Positions 1-46,672 of a stretch of 64,000 nt of DNA are shown here, in pieces. Position 1 is the stretch's first letter. The number at the start of each line of letters is the position of its first letter. The notes beneath the pieces were generated by a model. It was not told where the DNA came from and did not search any database. It saw only the letters and a list, made by a program, of their open reading frames with translations. The DNA lies in IMG/VR virus record IMGVR_UViG_3300010396_000009, positions 1-64,000 of that record, one strand, 5' to 3'. This stretch comes from a virus. A program made the position numbers and the translations under genes.

Positions 1-890
1 CGCGCTCGAATAGCAATTCGCTGCCACCCCAAAGCCACGCCTGAGCCTCCTCGCAGCTTTTCACGGTAAATGGCACCTGGAGTGTATAGATCCTGGCGGT
101 AGATGGGCAATGGCAGATCAGGAATCTCATCTGCAATAGCTGCACCAGCACCTCCTTGGTGCACTCGATGTCATTATCCCGTCGATCAAGCGTATTGGAA
201 TGCTCCATTAGCCTGAGCATTCCATAGCGCTCCATGCGGATGCGACGAACTTCCTCGTTTCGCTCATCTTGCAAGATCTGCTTTATCGTCTGTGTCTCCG
301 GTCGCATCACTATCTGCTCATCGACGCAGACGCCGTGAATAAAGTACTCAGTAAAGTCGCCCCACTTAAGCGCTGGCCCGTCCTCGCAGTGGAGTCGCTT
401 GCTCGCTCTAAGCAAAGAAATGTCCTCTGTTTTGATGATCTCCGGCGGCTCGCAGATAAATAGATACTTCCTCGCGTCTCCTATGGACACCGTATAGGCG
501 ATCCCGCCCTGCAGGTTCTTGGTGAACAATCGATGACCCATCTTTGGTGCGCCTTTTCCTAGTGGCTTCGCGCCGGTCGCCCTGGTCCATGTGTCCTGGA
601 CCTCAGTGGTCTCGATGCACTTATTCGTCTGGCGCAGTCCCTCGTACGCGGCGGCCAGGTCCAGCGTGATGAGCACACTCGAGTATCCTGACACATTGAT
701 CATGGGTCCGTATTGGGCCTGCGGATCATTCGCCCACTGGTTTCCCACCGCGTGAGCGACCACCGGTGACGAGACCCAGTGACAGTACTTGTATCCAGAG
801 AGAGAGAATCTCTATTTCTCGCTTTCGCTCCTTAGATAAGGGCTGGCAGAAGGCCTCGATGTTAGCCGCTCCACCTAGATGGTCGTACAT
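1..890 (-). CDS. DUF6745-like phage protein, runs off the window end; possibly frameshifted near its 5' end
   Basis: Not in the ORF track. Manual translation gives LHCEDGPALKWGDFTEYFIHGVCV...NEEVRRIRMERYG...CHCPSTARIYTLQVP...CEEAQAWLWG. The ATG at 890 has an AAGGAG SD but is out of frame with the body across (AG)5 at 797-807. Confidence 0.7.
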
Positions 891-1711
891 TCATGCGCTC
901 CTTTGTCTTCTCTGAAACCCTTGAATCGCGGGTGCCGAAGCCCGCCCGCGCTATCGCGCCGCTGATAAGTGACCTCAATGACTGTGCCGAGATACTTCTC
1001 CTCGTTCTCGCTGATCAGGTCCCTCGTCGCATCGTCCATGCCCGAGCAGTTGCAGATGTGCTCATAGTACTCAGTGTCACCCTCCAATTTAATGATACCG
1101 AGCTCAAGCGCGCCGAGGGTGCCCAGATACTTTCCCTTCCCCTCCTTGTAGCCAATTATAATAAGGTCAGCCGTGAGCACCGGCTTCCACTTGCACCAGT
1201 TCAATAGGTTACCATCCTTGAAGACATGACCCTCATAATCAGGCGGCGTCACTACGCTCCAGGCCTGGATAAACGGCTCTACTGAGTCACAGTCGACTCT
1301 CTCGAAGTCGACGAACGGCACATGAAGCACCTTGCAATAGTCCCGCAGCGATTCCAGGCTGAGATTAGCACTCTGTGACGGGATCGCGAAGCACTCCATT
1401 CTCAGTGAGTTATACTCGCGGTTCGCCAGATGGCTCTTGACCTGCGAGGCCTCCTCACCGGGCGCGAACAGCTCGCAGAACAGGGCACCGTTGAACTCTC
1501 GACGCCTTATGTTATAGAGCACGTCACCCGGCTGCCCGCCCAGCTGAATCTCATGGGCGCCGTCCGGGTGCCTGGTGAGACACGTTGGCATGTGATCTTG
1601 GCTACCGTGGCCGATCACGGTGATCATTATACCGTCTCGCTTGAGGTGAGCGTACTTGCGCACGTCGCCGGGCTTGTACGTCGTGATTTTCGGTCGCTCA
1701 TAGTGCATCAT
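875..1711 (-). CDS. ATP-dependent DNA ligase (compact phage type)
   Basis: KxDG adenylation motif (HLKRDG), EGHVFK, KWK and an OB-fold tail (GKYLGTLGAL...LRHPRFKGFREDK). Confidence 0.9.
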   Translation of the reverse strand: MMHYERPKITTYKPGDVRKYAHLKRDGIMITVIGHGSQDHMPTCLTRHPDGAHEIQLGGQPGDVLYNIRRREFNGALFCELFAPGEEASQVKSHLANREYNSLRMECFAIPSQSANLSLESLRDYCKVLHVPFVDFERVDCDSVEPFIQAWSVVTPPDYEGHVFKDGNLLNWCKWKPVLTADLIIIGYKEGKGKYLGTLGALELGIIKLEGDTEYYEHICNCSGMDDATRDLISENEEKYLGTVIEVTYQRRDSAGGLRHPRFKGFREDKGAHECTTI

Positions 1712-2492: not shown

Positions 2493-4478
2493 TTATCTCC
2501 CCAATATTCTCTTGAGAATCTCCCTCAGGTCCTGCACCTGAAGGGCGCTTGTCCTCTTGTTAGTCACCCGGGCTCGGATCTCTTCATCGACTGTTCCAAG
2601 CACCGTCAGGTCGGTGATACGCACGTTTCTCCTGGTTCCCTTTCTATGGCACCTGTCCTCGCTCTGGCTCCTCTTAGGGTGAGACCAGTCCTGGCTGTAG
2701 TAGATCTCATGGGTGCAGTCTGTGTCATGCGGCTTATCACTCGTGTAGTCATATCCGAGCAGGTTAATACCTGTGCCGCCGGCGCCCGGGTTACCGACGA
2801 GGACCTTGCACCTCGTGTCGCAGTTAAACCTGCGCACGTTCTCCTCTCTATCGGCCTCGCGAGTGCCGCCGCGGAACTCAACTGCGTCTATGTTCTCTCT
2901 TCGCAGTCTCTCCATGATAGAGCTGATGTCCTGCTTGAAGTGAGCCCAGACGATGGTCTTCTCTGTCGGCTCCTTGTCCTTGAGGATCTCGACCAGGGCC
3001 TCTATTTTTGGGTTAGGCTCGAACTTGTCAATCTGCCTGGCCGAGAGCACCTCGCCTGTCTCGTTATCAATGATCGGATCAAATGAGATGAACCCGCTGG
3101 TGATCTGCGCCAATCGCAGGAGCTTCACCAGGATGTTATCGGCGTTGAGTTGCTTGGTCTCATCCGCCAGGTCTCGCTCGATCTCGGCGGTCAGGTCGTC
3201 TCGCACCTGGTTATATATCTCCGCCTGGCGCTCGGTCATCTCGACCTCATATATGTCATAGACCTTCTCGGGCAGGTCCGGCAGCGCTTCTGATTTTTTC
3301 ACGATGAACGAGCATCTGGCGAGCCGCTCTTTCATGAAGGGAAGATTCTGCACGCCGGATAACCTCTTGGTTCCACGCGCTGGGTCACGGGCCTCGTAGA
3401 CACCATAGAATTTGCAGAAGGCCTCCCGAGAAGTGAATCCAGAACCTCCCTCTCGCATGAACTCAAATAATGAGAAGAGATCGAATACTGAGTTGCAGAC
3501 CGGGGTCCCAGTGAGCACCATTCTCGCGTTGGCGATGTCTCTTAATTCTATGGCGCTCTTCGACCTCTTGGTCTGCGACCCCTTAATGTAATGCGCCTCA
3601 TCTAGGACAGCCAAATCCCACTCAAGCTTAGAGATCAGCTCCCACGTCTTGCCCGAGAGGCACTCATAGGAGCAGACGACGATCGTGTACTGGAGCTCGT
3701 CGCGACCGTTCTTCACCATCGCCTCGAAGAACTGCTTCATCCGCTTGAACTCGCCGCCGCGGAGCACGGTCACCTTTCCCGCCACGTTCGAGAATCGCTC
3801 GAACTCCGTGGCCCAGTTTTGCCTGACGTTCTTCGGGGCCACGATTATGCAGCGATACATTCGCCCGTGCTTTGCTGAGATCACCGGAGCCTCGAGATCC
3901 ACTCGCTTAACGACGATCGGGGTCTTGCCGGTGCCCTGCTCCATGAAGAGCCCGTAGCCGTCTGTGTGCAAGCAGTTGGCCAGGCCGATATCCTGATGGA
4001 GCATCAGGTCGAGCCCGCTGTGAGAGGTGTACTGCCTCACTATGGGCTGCGTTGGAGCCGCGAGCATCGTGATCATGGGCTTGAGCGCCAGGTACTCGCG
4101 ATACTCGGCCGTTCGATGCATCGCGATCTGCTGATGCCTCACAGTTGTGATCAGATACCTGATGACGATCTCGGCATCCGGGCTCATCTTCACCTGGCTC
4201 TCGGGCCAGAGCTCAGTGATCAGCTGAGCCGAGATGTCAGTGCTGGGCACATTCCACTGAGTGCCGCTCTTAAGCCCGACCTCCTGTCGCTGCGGGAACC
4301 TCGACATAAATCCGTAAGTCGCCTCGTGACTCGGCCAGGTATTCGGCTCGCTCGTCGTTATCCTGAGTGACAGCTGCGAGGCGTCCTTGGCTGTGTCAAT
4401 CACGAGCTGATCCCAGGTAGACAAGCGCAATGGCTTCATGAGCTCGTCTTTGGTGATTGGCGTGTTTACTACTGCCAT
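2493..4478 (-). CDS. SNF2-family (SF2) helicase
   Basis: EQGTGKT, LDEAH, LTGTP, GGTGINL and QSEDRCHRKG motifs. Confidence 0.93.
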   Translation of the reverse strand: MAVVNTPITKDELMKPLRLSTWDQLVIDTAKDASQLSLRITTSEPNTWPSHEATYGFMSRFPQRQEVGLKSGTQWNVPSTDISAQLITELWPESQVKMSPDAEIVIRYLITTVRHQQIAMHRTAEYREYLALKPMITMLAAPTQPIVRQYTSHSGLDLMLHQDIGLANCLHTDGYGLFMEQGTGKTPIVVKRVDLEAPVISAKHGRMYRCIIVAPKNVRQNWATEFERFSNVAGKVTVLRGGEFKRMKQFFEAMVKNGRDELQYTIVVCSYECLSGKTWELISKLEWDLAVLDEAHYIKGSQTKRSKSAIELRDIANARMVLTGTPVCNSVFDLFSLFEFMREGGSGFTSREAFCKFYGVYEARDPARGTKRLSGVQNLPFMKERLARCSFIVKKSEALPDLPEKVYDIYEVEMTERQAEIYNQVRDDLTAEIERDLADETKQLNADNILVKLLRLAQITSGFISFDPIIDNETGEVLSARQIDKFEPNPKIEALVEILKDKEPTEKTIVWAHFKQDISSIMERLRRENIDAVEFRGGTREADREENVRRFNCDTRCKVLVGNPGAGGTGINLLGYDYTSDKPHDTDCTHEIYYSQDWSHPKRSQSEDRCHRKGTRRNVRITDLTVLGTVDEEIRARVTNKRTSALQVQDLREILKRILGR

Positions 4479-4595: not shown

Positions 4596-5300
4596 TCAAT
4601 TATTGAGCGGGTTCCCCTTGTCTCGCAGGGCCAGCTTGATCAGCTCCGGCGGCATCGAGAGCATCAATTTGAGAAGCTCGTCTGCTTTCGCAGAGAGCTT
4701 CTGCACCTTCTTCTCGCCGCCCATATTTCGCTCAAGAGCATAGAGCTCCTCTAACCTGGCGTAGCACTGATCGAGGATCTCATCGCCGCGCACCTTGTGC
4801 TGCATGAAGATCTCGAAGTAGCGACACTGGGCAGTCACACCGGTCTGAAGCTCGGTCTCCCTTTTACGAAAAGCTCGCATGTCATTCGCCAGAAGCCTCC
4901 TCAGAGAGTTGACCTCGTTCTGGTACCCGGCGATGATGAACCGCAGCGTAGAGGCTCGCTCATTGGTCAGCGAGGCCAGTTTTCTGCCCACCTGCGAGTG
5001 CTTGTGTGGCTTGATGTCATTCACGCGGCAGATCAGCTTGAGCATCTTTTTGATGCCCGAGGCCGAGAGGCACTCGATGAGCTCCTTTTGCTTCTCGACG
5101 ATCTGCAGCTGCAGATGAATCGTCAACTTTGCTGAGTCCGTCACCCGCTCTCTGAGGTGATGCAGCTCTGCGATCATAGGATTAACCACCTTTCGATGCT
5201 CTTGATAGACGCGTTTCACATCTCTTTGCTTGTCCGAGATGACGCATCTGATTCGGTTCTTGACGTGCTTGATCTCCTTGCGAATTTCCTCTATCGTCAT
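4596..5300 (-). CDS. coiled-coil hypothetical protein (probable start MTIEE at 5300)
   Basis: AAGGAG SD before the ATG at 5300; helical heptad character. Confidence 0.65.
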   Translation of the reverse strand: MTIEEIRKEIKHVKNRIRCVISDKQRDVKRVYQEHRKVVNPMIAELHHLRERVTDSAKLTIHLQLQIVEKQKELIECLSASGIKKMLKLICRVNDIKPHKHSQVGRKLASLTNERASTLRFIIAGYQNEVNSLRRLLANDMRAFRKRETELQTGVTAQCRYFEIFMQHKVRGDEILDQCYARLEELYALERNMGGEKKVQKLSAKADELLKLMLSMPPELIKLALRDKGNPLNN

Positions 5301-11374: not shown

Positions 11375-11632
11375 CTAGAGGGACAACAATTGATTAACGA
11401 ACTGCCAGGACTTGTAAACGGTCATTTGCTTGATCTCATCATCGGCATCCTTGCACCAGAGCTCGAAGACCCGAAGATCATTAGCCCAGTAGTCATCTTC
11501 GCCTTCGCCCCAGACGGTTATGACCATTGGCTGCCTGCTGCGGTCGCAGTACCAGATGTCTGCATCCTCGTCTCGCCCGACGAAAACACAGCTGCTACAC
11601 TTGGCCCACTTGTATTTCGGTTCACACAGCAT
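11375..11632 (-). CDS. hypothetical early protein
   Basis: AGGAGAAGCAAGATG start context; first gene after the ribozyme. Confidence 0.65.
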   Translation of the reverse strand: MLCEPKYKWAKCSSCVFVGRDEDADIWYCDRSRQPMVITVWGEGEDDYWANDLRVFELWCKDADDEIKQMTVYKSWQFVNQLLSL

Positions 11633-11652
11633 CTTGCTTCTCCTGTTCTACG

Positions 11653-11723
11653 AGAGACCTGTCTCATTCAGCGGCGGTAGGTCATCTCCGCCGGATCCCG
11701 GGCTACCATGCCGGGATTTCGAC
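11653..11723 (-). ncRNA. type II hammerhead ribozyme with pseudoknot
   Basis: GUC-GAAA-UCCCGG[9]CCGGGA-UC^-CGGCGG[AGAUGACCUA]CCGCCG-CUGAAUGA-GAC-AGGUCUCU; loop I GACCU pairs with the 3' tail AGGUC. Confidence 0.88.
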
Positions 11724-11916
11724 TACCTGTCTTGTGCTACGCCCGCTGTCACCGGGAGGTTGTCTATAGCTCACGCCGGGGATAGTGCCGGTCTACTGCC
11801 TGCTCTAGGCAGATCGTGATTGGCTGCAGTCCAGTCGTACCACCTGAGATGAGAGGGGCTGCGATGTGGGAACAGATTCGCGGATGCCCGGTGTTACTGC
11901 TGCATAGGCCTGTCAA

Positions 11917-11949
11917 ATTGTCAAAGAGCCTGGCAGATGGAGCTGCCAG
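11917..11949 (-). promoter_or_regulatory. rrn-like boxB hairpin plus boxA antitermination site
   Basis: CTGGCAG-N6-CTGCCAG hairpin immediately followed by GCTCTTTGACAAT (E. coli rrn boxA is TGCTCTTTAACA). Confidence 0.65.
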
Positions 11950-12042
11950 CCGTCTTCGGAGGTAGTGACACCTCCTCGGTCTCTGTGAGGAGCACGGGCC
12001 GTCGGACACAACCTGGCCGTTGTGTCCTCCGGTTCGGGCTCG

Positions 12043-12492
12043 CTACTTGAGCGGCTTGGTCCCGTTGATGGTCAGGTTGAAGCTCAGCGTGGCGGGAAGC
12101 CGCACACCGTCAACCACCACCGTGGTCTGCTCCGAGATCGTCCAGCCGAGGCTCTTGTCGGGGTTCTCGTACTTCACCCTGGCCGAGTACGGCACCTTGC
12201 CGACGGCCACCTCGATGGGCTTGGCGTGCTGGGCAAACCGCTCCCTGGTCATCACCGAGGTGACGGCCTGGTGCCTGGCCTGCTTCCGCAGCTTCTTGGC
12301 CTCGCTGCTCATCAGCACAGCGATCTCCTCCATGCTCAGTCCCATCGCCAGCCAGGCATTCCGCTTGGCGTCGACCTCCGCTGCCGCTGCGGCGTTCTGC
12401 GGGGTGATACCCGTCTGCAGCCTGGCCTCGACCTGGGCCAGGGATTCGCCAACGCTGCTCATCTTCGATGATGCTGTGTTACGACGGCTCAT
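12043..12492 (-). CDS. hypothetical protein, probable first early gene
   Basis: CAGGAG SD, GC-rich third positions, directly downstream of the AT-rich region. Confidence 0.7.
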   Translation of the reverse strand: MSRRNTASSKMSSVGESLAQVEARLQTGITPQNAAAAAEVDAKRNAWLAMGLSMEEIAVLMSSEAKKLRKQARHQAVTSVMTRERFAQHAKPIEVAVGKVPYSARVKYENPDKSLGWTISEQTTVVVDGVRLPATLSFNLTINGTKPLK

Positions 12493-12812: not shown

Positions 12813-13337
12813 ATGAACAATCAATTAAAACAATTGACGTTTAACTTCCAAGTGGACCATTTTCATGAAGGTCTACTTCTGCGAAAGATTCCTAATGAAA
12901 CAGGGTTCTTCGCTAGAGAAGATGGAACTATCTGGACTACTTGGATTAACAGGGGCAGAGGAAAACGAAGACATGAGTGGATTATGGGAGATGAGTACTT
13001 ACCAGTACATTTAAGTTTATGCGGTAAGCACCCGCATGTTAAGCTTTGGACAAAAGTCTACCATGTAGGGGTTGTCATTCTTACTACTTTCATAGGGCCA
13101 TGTCCGCCAGGACTAGAGTGTTGTCACGGGCCAGACGACAATCCTATGAATAATGCTGTAAGTAATCTTAGATGGGATACTAGATCTGCTAACGTAAAAG
13201 ACAGAAAATTTTCAAAGCTAGACGCTGAGCAAAGACAAGAAATTAAGTAAGAGTACGCTGATGGGACTAAAGTTGCAGAGATAGCTATATTGTTTGGAGT
13301 ATCGAAGAATTCTATTTATTTAGCTCTTCGAAGTTAG
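12813..13337 (+). pseudogene. HNH homing endonuclease with an in-frame TAA at 13248-13250 before its C-terminal HTH
   Basis: VILTTFIGPCPPGLECCHGPDDNPMNNAVSNLRWDTRSAN; the frame continues EYADGTKVAEIAILFGVSKNSIYLALRS*. Confidence 0.8.
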
Positions 13338-15232
13338 CCAAGCGGCTCCAAGTGCTGCTCACGCTCCTTGCTCTTGGCGTGCAGCCAGTTCTCGGTGGAC
13401 CAGCCGACGGTGGCCCTGATCGGCACGCAGAACGGCTTGCTCGGCGCGTCTAGTACTGTCACGATGCGCCTGAGTAAATTATCATCTTTCTCGAGCAGCT
13501 CGAGCGGGGCGTACCCAACGATCTCGTCATGCACTGACGCCACTTGTAGTAGCTCTGGCACTTCGTCGTTGAGCGCCACCATGCGCTCTTTCAAAAGGTC
13601 GCCGGCGCCCGACTGACATACAGCGTTGAACGCCTTATGAGCCCACTTCTCATCGAGGATCCTGCGACGCCCATAGTGATTTCGCACATAGCCGCGCTTG
13701 CGACATGCAGCCGACGCCTGCCGCGAGGCCTGCTTGAGCTCAGGCAATAACTTATTATGGTAGTCGTTATAGATCTTCAGAGCCCGCTGCTCGCACAGCA
13801 TCTGAATCATCGCGCCGCGAGACTCGGGTCTCACGCCTGATGCATCGACCTCCTTGATGATGTCACCGACGAAGTCTTCATTGATCGCCAGCGTCGCCAC
13901 GGTCTTTTTCTTGCCACCGCCGTATCCCATCATAAAGTTGATCGTCTTCGCTGGCTCGCGTGGGCACGGCACAGAATCAGCAACGTACTGGTGAAAGTCT
14001 GTCCAGGGGTTTGCTACGTAAGCATCTATGCAGTTCTTGTTCTCTGTGTAGTGCACGATTATGCGGAATTCTATTTGTGAGTAGTCAGCTACTACGATTC
14101 CGTAACCCTCTGGTGGTATGATCAGAGTCTTCGCTATTTTACTCAGCTGCTGTAGATTTGGATCACTGCAGCTCATGCGCCCGGTGCGCACGCTTTGATT
14201 ATACGTCGCGTGCATTCGCCCGCGAGGATCAACGATCTCTTGCCACTTCTCGAGAAATAGCGACCTGAGGTTCTCGCACTTGCGGTACTCAATCATCGCG
14301 TTGATGAGATCTTTAGGTGAGCCCGGATACTTCTTATAGAGCTTTAGAGCGTTCTTATCGAAGCTCGGACCAGGCACGCCGGTCTCGGTAGTGGGCTCCG
14401 TCCACGCCAGTACAGGGAGACCAAACTGGTTGCACAGGATATCATAGCAGTCCTTGCTGCTCGTCGGGAGAAAGGATCTACCCGCGAGCTTGTCCATCTG
14501 CGCATCGAGCTCATACATCTTGATGAGCGTGCGCATCTCAGCTTTCTTGAGCTCTGTGGGATTCACTAGGATGCCGCGCTGCTCCATCTCGAATAGCAGC
14601 CGGGTTACTCGATGCTCAGTATACTGGACTCCCAGCGACTCTTCGGGCATCTTATCCTTGATATAGCTATAAAGAGCCTTTGTGGCTTTTATATCTATAC
14701 AAGCGTACTCGGCCAGGATATCTATCGGGATGCGACCGTAGTCCTTGTTCCCGGCGAGGTACGGCACCATCGCCAAGCCAAATTTGTCAATATCGAAGTC
14801 ACACCACTGCTTGGATAGCACATCGAGTCCATAGCCGCCCTTGAACTGTCTGTCTGAGTCGACTAATTTAGCGTCATTGACCGTGCAGATCATTTCGGTC
14901 GACGACTTCGGAGATAATCCCAGGTCAGTCGCTGAGACATGGGCGTCGAACTTTATGTTATGATTCACCCAGCGCTTTGTAGCCATCAGCACATCAGACC
15001 ACCAGCCCGTGATCATCAGGTGCCTGGGTACGAAGTGTGTCGGGGCATCAAGACCGAATGACACAGCCGCGCCGATCGCGCTGCAGTGCCCGGTGTGTGG
15101 ATTTACCGCCATGAGCTTTGGATCGCCAGACGATGTCTCAAAGTCAGCGAACAAGTGCTCTATTGATGATGGAACAGCGGGCAGCTCGCTGAACTGCTCA
15201 ACGAGCTGCCCGCCAGACTCAAATGTGATCAT
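13334..15232 (-). CDS. polA: DNA polymerase family A with 3'-5' exonuclease
   Basis: Exo motifs DFET, HNIKFD, YACID; RTGRMS; motif A DYSQIEFR, motif B KTINF..GYG, motif C VHDE. Confidence 0.96.
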   Translation of the reverse strand: MITFESGGQLVEQFSELPAVPSSIEHLFADFETSSGDPKLMAVNPHTGHCSAIGAAVSFGLDAPTHFVPRHLMITGWWSDVLMATKRWVNHNIKFDAHVSATDLGLSPKSSTEMICTVNDAKLVDSDRQFKGGYGLDVLSKQWCDFDIDKFGLAMVPYLAGNKDYGRIPIDILAEYACIDIKATKALYSYIKDKMPEESLGVQYTEHRVTRLLFEMEQRGILVNPTELKKAEMRTLIKMYELDAQMDKLAGRSFLPTSSKDCYDILCNQFGLPVLAWTEPTTETGVPGPSFDKNALKLYKKYPGSPKDLINAMIEYRKCENLRSLFLEKWQEIVDPRGRMHATYNQSVRTGRMSCSDPNLQQLSKIAKTLIIPPEGYGIVVADYSQIEFRIIVHYTENKNCIDAYVANPWTDFHQYVADSVPCPREPAKTINFMMGYGGGKKKTVATLAINEDFVGDIIKEVDASGVRPESRGAMIQMLCEQRALKIYNDYHNKLLPELKQASRQASAACRKRGYVRNHYGRRRILDEKWAHKAFNAVCQSGAGDLLKERMVALNDEVPELLQVASVHDEIVGYAPLELLEKDDNLLRRIVTVLDAPSKPFCVPIRATVGWSTENWLHAKSKEREQHLEPLG

Positions 15233-43711: not shown

Positions 43712-45220
43712 TCACGGCTGCGTGTACAGCGTGAAGGGAAGCTCGATGGCGCCGACGGCAGTCGCGAGGAACGTGATGCCGCCGCCGTTCATATCTGTAT
43801 TGGCCAAATCTACCTTGTAGGTGCCGCTGGTGCCGATCTCTGTGATGCCGCTCATATTGGCAACGTTAGCATACGAATTACCGTCGATAGATCTCTGGAG
43901 CGTGATTTGCCCAGATAACCCAGATAAGAGCTGCTGTGGGTTCGCCGCGTTAAACATCGGGAATGTATAGCCGCTGATACCGACGTCCTTCTTGAAGACC
44001 AGCTGTCCATTCAATAAGGTGACCAGGGCGCCAGCCTGCATCGGCGTTCCGATGGCGACTAGAAGCGCCGCATAGTTAGCCGCGAGCACGCTCGCCTGGG
44101 CTGCTGTCTTGGCAGCGTCGTACGCTGATATGAGCGCCATTGCATCGCCGGCCTTTGCGGGCGCGTAGTTAGGCTGACTGACAGATAGCGCGACTGATGC
44201 GCCCGCTTGCATCGGCGTCCCTACCGCCGTCAAGAGCAACGTCTCGTCAGCTATGTTATTTGTCGGCAGCTTGTTGTAGATGGATGTAAGATGCGACTGA
44301 TCCGTGGCAGTCCACACGACGGATGCCTCGTCGACAGTCTGCGTGTATGCCGATAGAGTGTATACGACAGACGAAATTGTCGCCGATACATCCATGCGTA
44401 TTTGCTCGAGTGTCGGTGAAGCGCCCGGTGTATACGTCCAGCGGTACACACCTGTTGATGGGTTTGTGGCAGCAGACAAATTGCCCGACAAATTGCCGCT
44501 TGTGTTGCCCGTGGCCGTCAGCGTCGGAGTCGTATCGGCATTCACAGCCGTTCCGTCGACGGCGGAGTACGTGCGGCACTCGATGGTATAGGTCTCACCA
44601 GGGACATACTGCCCGATGGTAGTCAGCAACAAGTGCTTCGATGCAGACTGATTAATAGCGACGATATCAGCGTGACTGGCAACAGCGCCGCCGACGTTAA
44701 GGTTATCGAGATAGCCGGCCCTGGCGGACGTAAGTCGTGTCAAGAGCGTCGCAGCATCTACGCCGTCACCACTGGCAATAGTCGCCGGGACTTTGCCGCC
44801 GCTGGAATTCAACTGGCCCGTACCCGTTCCGACCTGCAAGCCGTGGAGGTTGTTATTGGCGTCGACCGTGGGCACGCCTCCATTTGCGCCGGCTGTGGCA
44901 TTCGGCACGCCGTCAAACCCTGCATTGTGTGCATTCGCGACTTCATACGCGTCGCCAGCGTCATTGATTGACGCCTCAGCCCCGCGCCATGCTAGCGGCC
45001 CGGTCGTGCCTGTGTCGCCGGTCCCTAGATCGAAGTAATAGAACCCGCTCGAAATTTCGGTTGCGTTTGTCACGCCGGCCGCCGGGTTCCCGAATAACCC
45101 GCCGTTCTTGCTGATCGTGATTGCAATAGTCTTCCCGGTCGCCAGCGTCTTGCCATCCGATGACAGGTAAGCCCGGAACGCCACACGCTTGGCGACTGAT
45201 TGAGGTATCCGCTCTGCCAT
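43712..45220 (-). CDS. putative fibre/whisker structural protein
   Basis: Gly/Ala/Thr-rich, with related Ig-like end domains (TEISSGFYYFDL / TEIGTSGTYKVDL). Confidence 0.6.
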   Translation of the reverse strand: MAERIPQSVAKRVAFRAYLSSDGKTLATGKTIAITISKNGGLFGNPAAGVTNATEISSGFYYFDLGTGDTGTTGPLAWRGAEASINDAGDAYEVANAHNAGFDGVPNATAGANGGVPTVDANNNLHGLQVGTGTGQLNSSGGKVPATIASGDGVDAATLLTRLTSARAGYLDNLNVGGAVASHADIVAINQSASKHLLLTTIGQYVPGETYTIECRTYSAVDGTAVNADTTPTLTATGNTSGNLSGNLSAATNPSTGVYRWTYTPGASPTLEQIRMDVSATISSVVYTLSAYTQTVDEASVVWTATDQSHLTSIYNKLPTNNIADETLLLTAVGTPMQAGASVALSVSQPNYAPAKAGDAMALISAYDAAKTAAQASVLAANYAALLVAIGTPMQAGALVTLLNGQLVFKKDVGISGYTFPMFNAANPQQLLSGLSGQITLQRSIDGNSYANVANMSGITEIGTSGTYKVDLANTDMNGGGITFLATAVGAIELPFTLYTQP

Positions 45221-45223
45221 GAT

Positions 45224-46672
45224 TTATCCTAAAGCGGAAAGACCAGATGGAAGTGCCGCACGGTTCGCGCCACCCGCCGCCGCCTGACTCTGCAACGCCC
45301 CGCCGTCCGCAAACCCCGCTGTAACCAGCCCCGGCAGCGACCCCGGAAACCCCGCCGCCTTGCACGCTGCCCCGCCGCCAGCCGTCGAGTTCAGCGAGAA
45401 GTCATTGCTAGTGCGTGCGGTAAACGGATCGGCAGTCAGCGTCACGTCTCCGCTGCCGGCGGCGAGATTATTGCGCGCCCCACTGGTGTTCGAACCGTAG
45501 GCGTTGTTGCGGTTCGCGACGATAAACGCGGCCGAGTTGGTGTCGTTTACTCCATACCCGCCGTTGCCCCAGAAAATCGAATTTTGCAGAAGCAGCCCGA
45601 AGAAATTTCCGTTGGCGATCGCACTCACGATTCCGTCGCTGGTCTGCGAGACAAAATCACAATGACCCACGTCGATCATGCTCCCGCTCGTTGCTGATGA
45701 TCCGGCCGCCGACGTGAGGTTGATTCCGGTTGCGTTGCTATAAAACACACAGTTGCGAACGGTGTAACCGTTGACGCCAGACACGCCCATCGACGGAATT
45801 TTGATGCCAGCGCCGGTGTTGCCGTGGATGTAGCAGTTCATAATCCGGCTCGTGTTCGCAATGATAATGCCATCTGCGCCGCCGGTCACTTCAAGTCCGT
45901 CGCAGATCAAATTCGAAATCGCGAATGCGATTGAATTGTCGGAGAGAATAGCTGCTTTGTGACCCGACAGTTTGCAGTTGGAAATTCTCCAATTGGCTGT
46001 GGTCCGATTGAATCCCGGAACAAACGCATATCCAGGTGTACCCGCAGTGGTGCTAAAGTCGATGTTGTCGAACACACGAAAGTTCAATGTCACGCTGGCG
46101 TTGTCTTTAATCATCATCAGGTTGTTCGTGGCAGTCGTAATCAGCGGTCGCGTCCCGTCGTGGTCTCCGCGAGTCGTGTGATACCCTTGCCACGTAATGA
46201 CGCCGCTTGTCTGGTCGCCGGGATTACTGAGGATGATTGATGATGAAATTGTCTGGTTCGTGCCGTCAGCCTTGAGCCATGCAGTGTTCCCGGCAACGAG
46301 CACTCCCTCTGCTTTAGTAATCGTCGCCAGAGCACCGCCTACATTTGCCGTACCTGCTGCCCCGACACCAGTTGCCACGTTGCGGTCGAATGTGATTGAC
46401 GATCCGACAACAACAGACGCCACATTGTAGATGCCGGTGGTGAAGTTCGTGCCCGCTGTGATCTGTGTCCAATTTCCTACCATGTCAGATGTGGCAGAAG
46501 CAGTGGATACGGTTGCACTCGCCCCTGACGTGGTCAATCCGCTCAAGGCATATTGGGCACTCGCCTGCTGGCTGTAATCAGTGCCAGACGAACCGGTGAC
46601 ATAGCCACCTCCATTGTTGTCGCTTCCCGAACCGGGGCGAACTTCTGCAACACTAGCTGCCGGAAGTGTCAT
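45224..46672 (-). CDS. right-handed beta-helix (pectin lyase-like) structural protein
   Basis: Repeated NC/NS-x-F-x-x-N-x-x-x-GI rungs and a C-terminal DPF...DFSL...DGGALQ. Confidence 0.75.
   Translation of the reverse strand: MTLPAASVAEVRPGSGSDNNGGGYVTGSSGTDYSQQASAQYALSGLTTSGASATVSTASATSDMVGNWTQITAGTNFTTGIYNVASVVVGSSITFDRNVATGVGAAGTANVGGALATITKAEGVLVAGNTAWLKADGTNQTISSSIILSNPGDQTSGVITWQGYHTTRGDHDGTRPLITTATNNLMMIKDNASVTLNFRVFDNIDFSTTAGTPGYAFVPGFNRTTANWRISNCKLSGHKAAILSDNSIAFAISNLICDGLEVTGGADGIIIANTSRIMNCYIHGNTGAGIKIPSMGVSGVNGYTVRNCVFYSNATGINLTSAAGSSATSGSMIDVGHCDFVSQTSDGIVSAIANGNFFGLLLQNSIFWGNGGYGVNDTNSAAFIVANRNNAYGSNTSGARNNLAAGSGDVTLTADPFTARTSNDFSLNSTAGGGAACKAAGFPGSLPGLVTAGFADGGALQSQAAAGGANRAALPSGLSALG

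Follow-up and report, generated by a model that had tools for sequence, protein, structure and literature searches.

A probable self-cleaving type II hammerhead ribozyme with an extra core adenosine in the replication gene cluster of a soil-metagenome phage

Does an RNA motif that carries every element of a hammerhead ribozyme, and one core nucleotide too many, still belong to the family and still cleave itself? The question is raised by positions 11724-11653 on the minus strand of IMG/VR virus record IMGVR_UViG_3300010396_000009, a complete genome of 75,231 base pairs (bp) with direct terminal repeats, of which the first 64 kb form the window that we analysed. The preliminary description of this stretch, made from the letters alone, had proposed a type II hammerhead with a one-nucleotide core insertion in an early transcript. 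Our comparisons place the site in the type II hammerhead family with near certainty, and they make self-cleavage of biological meaning likely. Taken as a whole, the site is quite probably a pseudoknot-stabilised type II hammerhead of the tailed-phage kind that cleaves itself and is transcribed with the minus-strand replication cluster. Judged by its sequence, it is a member of a common phage subclass, and the insertion that it carries is the already published A6a.

Read directly, the site shows the type II order GUC, GAAA, a 7-bp stem III, C17, a 6-bp stem I, CUGAAUGA and GAC, and its three helices have the type II permutation, with stems I and III closed by loops and stem II open (Table 1). 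Stem-loop III, whose seven pairs include A15.1:U16.1 (A 11717 with U 11695), forms in the minimum free energy (MFE) fold. The core identities C3, U4, G5 and A6, G8 and A9, and G12, A13 and A14 are all right and are aligned both in RF02276, the Rfam Hammerhead_II model, and in our family model R2 (62 members); in the R2 alignment all pairs of stem-loop III are canonical. Position 17, where G is excluded, is C. This C aligns with the C17 column of RF02276, and in the corresponding column 2 of alignment A4 (described below) C is found in at least 90% of 31 relatives, which upholds the cut predicted at the outset between 11694 and 11693. The spacing from A6 to G8 departs from the canonical single N7 and comprises two nucleotides (nt), A and U. 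Rfam and R2 both place a single inserted 'a' after CUGA, as the preliminary description had it, and the extra A may be 11668 or 11667, which are indistinguishable; the insertion is not new (PMC3088659). The pseudoknot strand begins directly after stem II (tail offset 0), as in the type II consensus published there, and the complementarity between the site's own loop I and its own tail was reached by no tail permutation out of 5000.

We searched the whole 75-kb genome on both strands with our own descriptor, which allows for all three topologies and for a core that either fits the consensus or departs from it by one inserted or substituted nucleotide, and the site was the only good match. When the genome was shuffled 1,440 times with its dinucleotide composition preserved, type II motifs whose stems total 16 bp or more arose at a rate of 0.0014 per genome, and none of the 1,440 shuffles produced one that also bore a pseudoknot of at least 5 bp. 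When a 96-nt stretch was searched alone, RF02276 was the sole match among 4,227 Rfam families, with a full-length alignment (1-66), 21.5 bits and E = 0.012; this alignment inserts single bases after CUGA and after UGA. R2 gave the site 69.5 bits, with every pair canonical and the inserted 'a' as sole deviation, a score that is partly circular because the site is one of the 62 training rows; the next best R2 site in the genome, with filters off, reached 10 bits. The reciprocal result is free of this circularity: a seed covariance model built from the site and its nearest relative alone recovered 60 further hammerheads, many of which pass the Rfam cut-off at 38-51 bits.

The family was delimited by exact scans of IMG/VR that fixed stem II as GUC/GAC. 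The frame GUCGAAA-N28-58-CUGAAUGAGAC occurred at 68 loci. We rejected 47 of these 68 matches as a coincidental 72-nt segment from the beginning of a gene, without hammerhead stems, which related contigs share (within loci L012-L079, for example L045:2640-2711, on contigs mostly from one metagenome, 3300045988) and which would mislead a search by pattern alone. A handful of the remaining loci were due to chance, and the rest hold complete type II hammerheads that differ in stems I and III and have their own loop I/tail pseudoknots; 12 distinct CUGAAUGA sequences, the window's included, passed the structural filter. With the canonical core (CUGAUGAGAC) the corresponding scan returned at least 120 stretches. 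Counts given here for this class rest on 80 of these loci, in which 99 distinct sequences among 104 raw matches passed the structural filter, so that no fewer than 99 type II hammerheads with a consensus core have the GUC...GAC frame, with up to seven copies per contig among the matches listed. By these sequence counts, ribozymes with this frame are common in phages, and those with the extra A are the smaller part, at most about 10-14% of them.

Within this family the site looks typical. Its 22-nt hairpin I has one of the two dominant lengths of the consensus class (31 of the 99 listed), and position 17 is C in 12/12 A6a members and in 89/99 listed consensus members. The apex of hairpin I, GGAGAUGACCUACC, and the tail AGGUC fit the stereotyped design of the subclass almost letter for letter. 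Nearly identical apices are found in three hammerheads, namely GGAGAUGAUCUACC with tail AGAUC (L130:4290-4360), GGAGAUGGUCUACC with tail AGACC (L157:3904-3967) and GGAGAUAGCCUACC with tail AGGCU (L122:2973-3050); these tails covary with their loops, whereas the cores, unlike that of the site, are the canonical 7-nt CUGAUGA. The first of these passes the Rfam cut-off with 48.8 bits (L130:4292-4360).

Because stem lengths vary, a MAFFT alignment of whole ribozymes was not structurally meaningful and was set aside in favour of model-guided alignments and a gapless sub-alignment. The latter, A4, is a model-free MAFFT alignment of 31 subclass sequences from U16.1 to the tail, and its only gapped column holds the extra A of the site and of its nearest relative. 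Across stem I and a six-pair pseudoknot, 94.4% of the cells in A4 are paired, compared with 66.9% in shuffled alignments and 31-40% with slid partners, and the covariation score is 0.795 versus 0.212; 11 of the 12 pairs have changed on both sides. Stem I accounts for six of these (6/6, with 99.5% of cells paired) and the pseudoknot for the other five (5/6), and the register of the site is that of the family. Of the pseudoknot pairs, the central four are present in 30-31 of the 31 relatives, compensatory changes included, and pairing between a ribozyme's own loop and its own tail beat permuted tails in 5000 of 5000 cases, in the A6a set as well as in the consensus set. The GACCU/AGGUC pseudoknot and the order of the type II elements, both asserted in the preliminary description, are thus borne out, the latter by direct reading, the Rfam alignment, the family model and covariation alike. 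The further AGA/UCU extension of the pseudoknot was not sustained: it would require a U to bulge out, and pairing at these positions is seen in no more than 8-11 of the 31 relatives, which is about chance. An in-register alternative (5-14 of 31) is likewise at about chance level.

The nearest relative, L029:4589-4663 on IMG/VR contig 3300017991_000096, is itself a type II hammerhead with an A6a core, and its mean column identity to the site is 82% over 75 nt. The two share stem II, the CUGAAUGA core, the pseudoknot register and a hairpin I of 22 nt whose loop has 10 nt. They differ by compensatory changes in stem I and in the pseudoknot (loop UAGCCU with tail AGGCUA, compared with GACCU and AGGUC), by the length of stem III (10 bp versus 7 bp in the site) and by the RF02276 score, which at 38.6 bits is above the 37-bit cut-off in L029 and at 21.5 bits below it in the site. 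The L029 contig has a second copy, with a consensus core, 2.6 kb upstream, and no proteins shared with the window phage were detected in the retrieved L029 locus. More broadly, the site resembles the type II hammerheads of RF02276 and Perreault et al. in its circular permutation, core nucleotides, short stem II and loop I/3'-tail pseudoknot, and in its phage intergenic setting on the sense strand (PMC3088659); the type II consensus with this pseudoknot, the short stem II and the clustering of phage hammerheads are all part of what that paper says of the type. It differs from these kin in the extra A after A6, the sub-cut-off Rfam score, the lone copy and the apparently non-coding leader of about 400 nt.

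The position of the site relative to genes also follows the family. We counted how often a Shine-Dalgarno (SD) sequence and a start codon open an open reading frame (ORF) within 120 nt downstream, and used the antisense strand as control. On the sense strand this was the case for 91/99 listed consensus hammerheads and 11/12 A6a hammerheads, versus 12/99 and 3/12, respectively, on the antisense strand. The distance from stem II to the start codon has a family median of 25-26 nt; at the site it is 28 nt, within the about 10-45 nt of the subclass. The ATG at 11632 lies 61 nt past the predicted cut, in agreement with the earlier estimate of about 60 nt. The site itself is located on the sense strand amid small orphan ORFs, between the DNA polymerase and helicase genes. 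The label 'early transcript' that it had been given is plausible, as a deduction from this setting among the replication genes in the sense orientation.

The upstream side is less usual. The only ORF in 11725-12042 is a GTG frame (11764-12009) without an SD, whose GC content is flat over the three codon positions (0.57/0.59/0.61), compared with a second-position GC of 0.36-0.47 in four neighbouring genes. A terminator-like hairpin at about 11960-11925 is directly followed by twin TTGACA boxes (11924-11919 and 11916-11911), and the fold of the stretch has a z-score of -2.08 versus shuffles. A sigma-70 promoter scan of the minus strand over 12042-11633 called none, and the 318 upstream nt showed no similarity to any of the retrieved ribozyme loci. 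At about 320 nt, the stretch is unusually long for a phage gene junction.

A natural hammerhead with an insertion after A6 (A6a, CUGA-A-N-GA) was described by Perreault et al. 2011, where the passages on core variants treat it as a single rare case and report low activity in vitro, yet count it among the active variants (PMC3088659, Fig. 5, S6). In the literature after 2011 we found nothing more specific on this insertion. The low activity is ascribed in the same passages to a disturbed A6-N7 phosphate contact with U4 (PMC3088659). Because of this published low activity and the expected disturbance of the contact, cleavage at the site could be too slow to matter, which we count against our reading. 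Such a weakness would suit an inactivated relic, a once-canonical type II hammerhead with a one-base duplication of A6 whose cleavage rate is no longer useful and whose structure is intact only because the mutation is recent. The Rfam score below the cut-off, the lone copy without relatives that could reveal purifying selection and the minority status of A6a within the frame all fit this account, which we nevertheless consider unlikely.

Random decay predicts comparable insertions at neighbouring core positions. Of 55 distinct matches with insertions between U4 and G5 (four variants), one passed the structural filter marginally and none had a pseudoknot, and this control set includes the duplications of U4 and G5, which are the same type of mutation as the proposed duplication of A6. 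CUGAU-N-GA insertions (four variants) gave one dubious pass among 56, compared with 12/36 for CUGAAUGA. In total, we counted about 16 further phage ribozymes of intact structure with A6a, comprising 11 distinct CUGAAUGA copies besides the window's and 4-5 clearly real copies of CUGAA[A/C/G]GA (two in L286, and others in L296 and L065). These features also argue against a relic: the A6a copies span hairpin I classes of 17, 22, 23, 24 and 25 nt with different stems and pseudoknots that covary, C17 is kept throughout, 11 of the 12 have a pseudoknot of 4 bp or longer, and they sit in arrays beside canonical ribozymes. In L075, for example, four hammerheads pass Rfam and a single A6a copy (3003-3070) is the last of the array. 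In the Rfam calibration, consensus relatives scored 38-51 bits and the A6a copies other than that of L029 remained under the cut-off. Because neighbouring core insertions are essentially absent among intact ribozymes and A6a is recurrent, the extra A is, as far as the sequences tell, a tolerated and probably selected variant rather than the product of random decay.

Its recurrence raises the question of whether phages use attenuated ribozymes on purpose. We entertain, with considerable doubt, the idea that CUGA-A-N-GA hammerheads are a selected, deliberately slow-cleaving grade and not damaged copies, and that the lone copy here times the small-ORF block behind a non-coding leader. What suggests the idea is the specificity of the insertion, an A directly behind A6, and its occurrence in many unrelated phages, beside canonical ribozymes. 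If it were true, A6a could set a partial and tunable ratio of cut to uncut transcripts, and slow cleavage could set free a separate non-coding RNA that ends in a 2',3'-cyclic phosphate and time the expression of the small ORFs.

A second tolerated insertion site was observed in the same subclass after A9, at L075:3752-3818 (CUGAUGA-A-GAC) and L052:3090-3163 (CUGAAGA-U-GGC); the former, with its extra base after A9, passes Rfam with 45.1 bits (L075:3754-3818). Pseudomonas phage PaP3 (AY078382; L011), one of the phages with a hammerhead named as tested in PMC3088659, was considered as the source of the published A6a and rejected. Its two hammerheads, which we found by eye in the gaps 43977-44112 and 45417-45503 (minus strand), have no such insertion: one is of type I with a consensus core and the other of type III with a U10.1-U11.1 mismatch, a variation next to the core that is tolerated, so neither is type II or A6a. 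Like the site, they are on the sense strand in intergenic gaps among small ORFs (orf66-orf71). A scan of 142 kb at the Rfam gathering threshold reported neither of them.

Several further observations weigh against the site as a working ribozyme. Its 21.5 bits are under the RF02276 gathering threshold of 37 bits. Rfam reported no hammerhead over the 64-kb window at the gathering threshold, nor over 601 nt at E <= 10, and an RF02276 search of the whole genome did not report the site either. Because the match appears once the 96-nt stretch is searched alone, the blanks in the larger Rfam scans are losses to filters and not evidence. In the MFE fold of 11645-11730 (minus strand) a competing hairpin, AUGAGA/UCUCGU, would tie up G8 and A9 together with part of the tail and the 3' strand of stem II; it may truly compete with the ribozyme fold or arise only because the folding is blind to pseudoknots. 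In most ribozymes of the family the 5' end lies at or next to the stop codon of the preceding ORF (median gap about 1 nt). The site has no such neighbour, the nearest credible upstream ORF ending some 320 nt away at 12043, and it stands alone where many phages have arrays. Finally, by sequence comparison this is a phage without close relatives: blastn against a phage collection found no relative of the virus, the relatives of its DNA polymerase are at most 36% identical and have no hammerhead at their loci, and the small ORFs that flank the site have no relatives among viral contigs.

Another conceivable reading is that the element derives from a hammerhead and does its work uncut, insulating or stabilising the message behind it or binding a protein, with catalysis dispensable. 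Such a structural role would be suited by the constant distance of about 25 nt to the following gene start and by the weakening of catalysis that the sections of PMC3088659 on A6a report. We regard it as improbable, because the catalytic G5, G8, G12 and C17 are strictly kept in the A6a copies, which a pure structure would not need, because the family is classically self-cleaving and has Rfam-passing members in the same positions, and because unrelated classes such as twister fill equivalent slots, which suggests that what these ribozymes have in common is cleavage, an argument made in PMC6765202. The idea that a GC-rich intergenic stretch looks like a hammerhead by chance, for which one could cite the shortness of the motif, the silence of Rfam at its curated threshold and the expectation that scanning hundreds of thousands of windows yields some 21-bit matches, is effectively refuted by the shuffles without and with the pseudoknot, the nearly letter-for-letter fit of hairpin I and tail to the subclass with compensatory pseudoknot changes in the same register, the gap between the R2 score of the site and the next best in the genome, and the family-typical strand and distance to the next start codon.

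Under our preferred reading of a self-cleaving type II hammerhead, the RNA would fold during transcription, with the pseudoknot holding stems I and II side by side, and the 2'-OH of C17 would attack the adjacent phosphate. The upstream RNA would be left with a 2',3'-cyclic phosphate end, and the downstream messenger RNA would begin with a 5'-OH at 11693 and carry the stem I hairpin as a cap. Cleavage would thereby separate an untranslated upstream RNA of roughly 400 nt from the small-ORF message and probably shift the relative stability or translation of the two RNAs, and the extra A would most likely slow this cleavage rather than abolish it. Reviews still regard what phage hammerheads do as unsettled (PMC6765202), and the site adds one more example to a large and functionally unexplained population. 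For annotation, it means that a default Rfam scan misses such copies altogether.

Table 1. Coordinates of the putative ribozyme, its flanks and selected genes in the window
Feature	Position	Strand	Remarks
Stem II, 5' strand GUC	11721..11723	-	C11.1 is 11721; pairs with GAC 11663-11661
Core G12 A13 A14 and A15.1 (GAAA)	11717..11720	-	aligned to GAAA of RF02276 and of model R2
Stem-loop III, AUCCCGG/CCGGGAU	11695..11717	-	11717-11711 with 11701-11695, 7 bp, 9-nt loop
C17, cleavage-site nucleotide	11694	-	predicted cut between 11694 and 11693
Stem-loop I, 22 nt	11672..11693	-	stem CGGCGG/CCGCCG, 11693-11688 with 11677-11672, 6 bp
Loop I, AGAUGACCUA, 10 nt	11687-11678	-	
Core CUGAAUGA	11664..11671	-	C3 U4 G5 A6, extra A, U7 G8 A9
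Stem II, 3' strand GAC	11661..11663	-	G10.1 is 11663 and pairs with C 11721; 3 bp
3' tail AGGUC	11656..11660	-	pseudoknot strand; pairs with loop I GACCU 11683-11679, 5 bp
Upstream stretch, probably non-coding	11725..12042	-	would be the 5' cleavage product or its 3' part
Shine-Dalgarno AGGAGA	11644-11639	-	
Orphan ORF, 85 amino acids	ATG 11632 to 11375	-	would head the 3' cleavage product
Replication module	about 1-22 kb		primase/helicase, methyltransferase, thymidylate kinase, DNA polymerase, helicase, ligase
DNA polymerase	13334-15232		
Helicase	2493-4478		
Ligase	875-1711		
Structural genes	about 33-60 kb		

Nearly all genes of the genome are carried on the minus strand, and a soil-metagenome DNA run, probably that of the source sample, is the only sequencing run that contains the virus record. 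For the ORF of 85 amino acids (aa) downstream of the site, no homologue besides itself was found among 5.8 billion proteins. The whole-genome RF02276 search did report a second place, 12299-12366 (minus strand, 12.9 bits), which we judged to be a chance match; it has CUGAUGA, with GAAU in place of GAAA, and lies inside the coding frame of a 149-aa ORF (12043-12492).

Some further observations concern the related loci and the surroundings of the site. Hammerhead arrays of 5-7 type II copies, spaced by roughly 200-900 nt with one copy per small gene, are found at L075:3003-4685, L127:8402-11317 and L128:2702-4800. At L036, an A6a hammerhead (4225-4296) is followed about 640 nt on by a Twister-P5 ribozyme (4934-4993; 48 bits, above the cut-off), and the two flank one 117-aa ORF, so that two unrelated ribozyme classes occupy equivalent slots on an unrelated phage contig. 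In the window itself, the sole convincing plus-strand gene near the site encodes an HNH endonuclease (12813-13250, PHROG matches down to 9e-20) and sits between the DNA polymerase gene and the small-ORF block, a placement as for a free-standing homing endonuclease.

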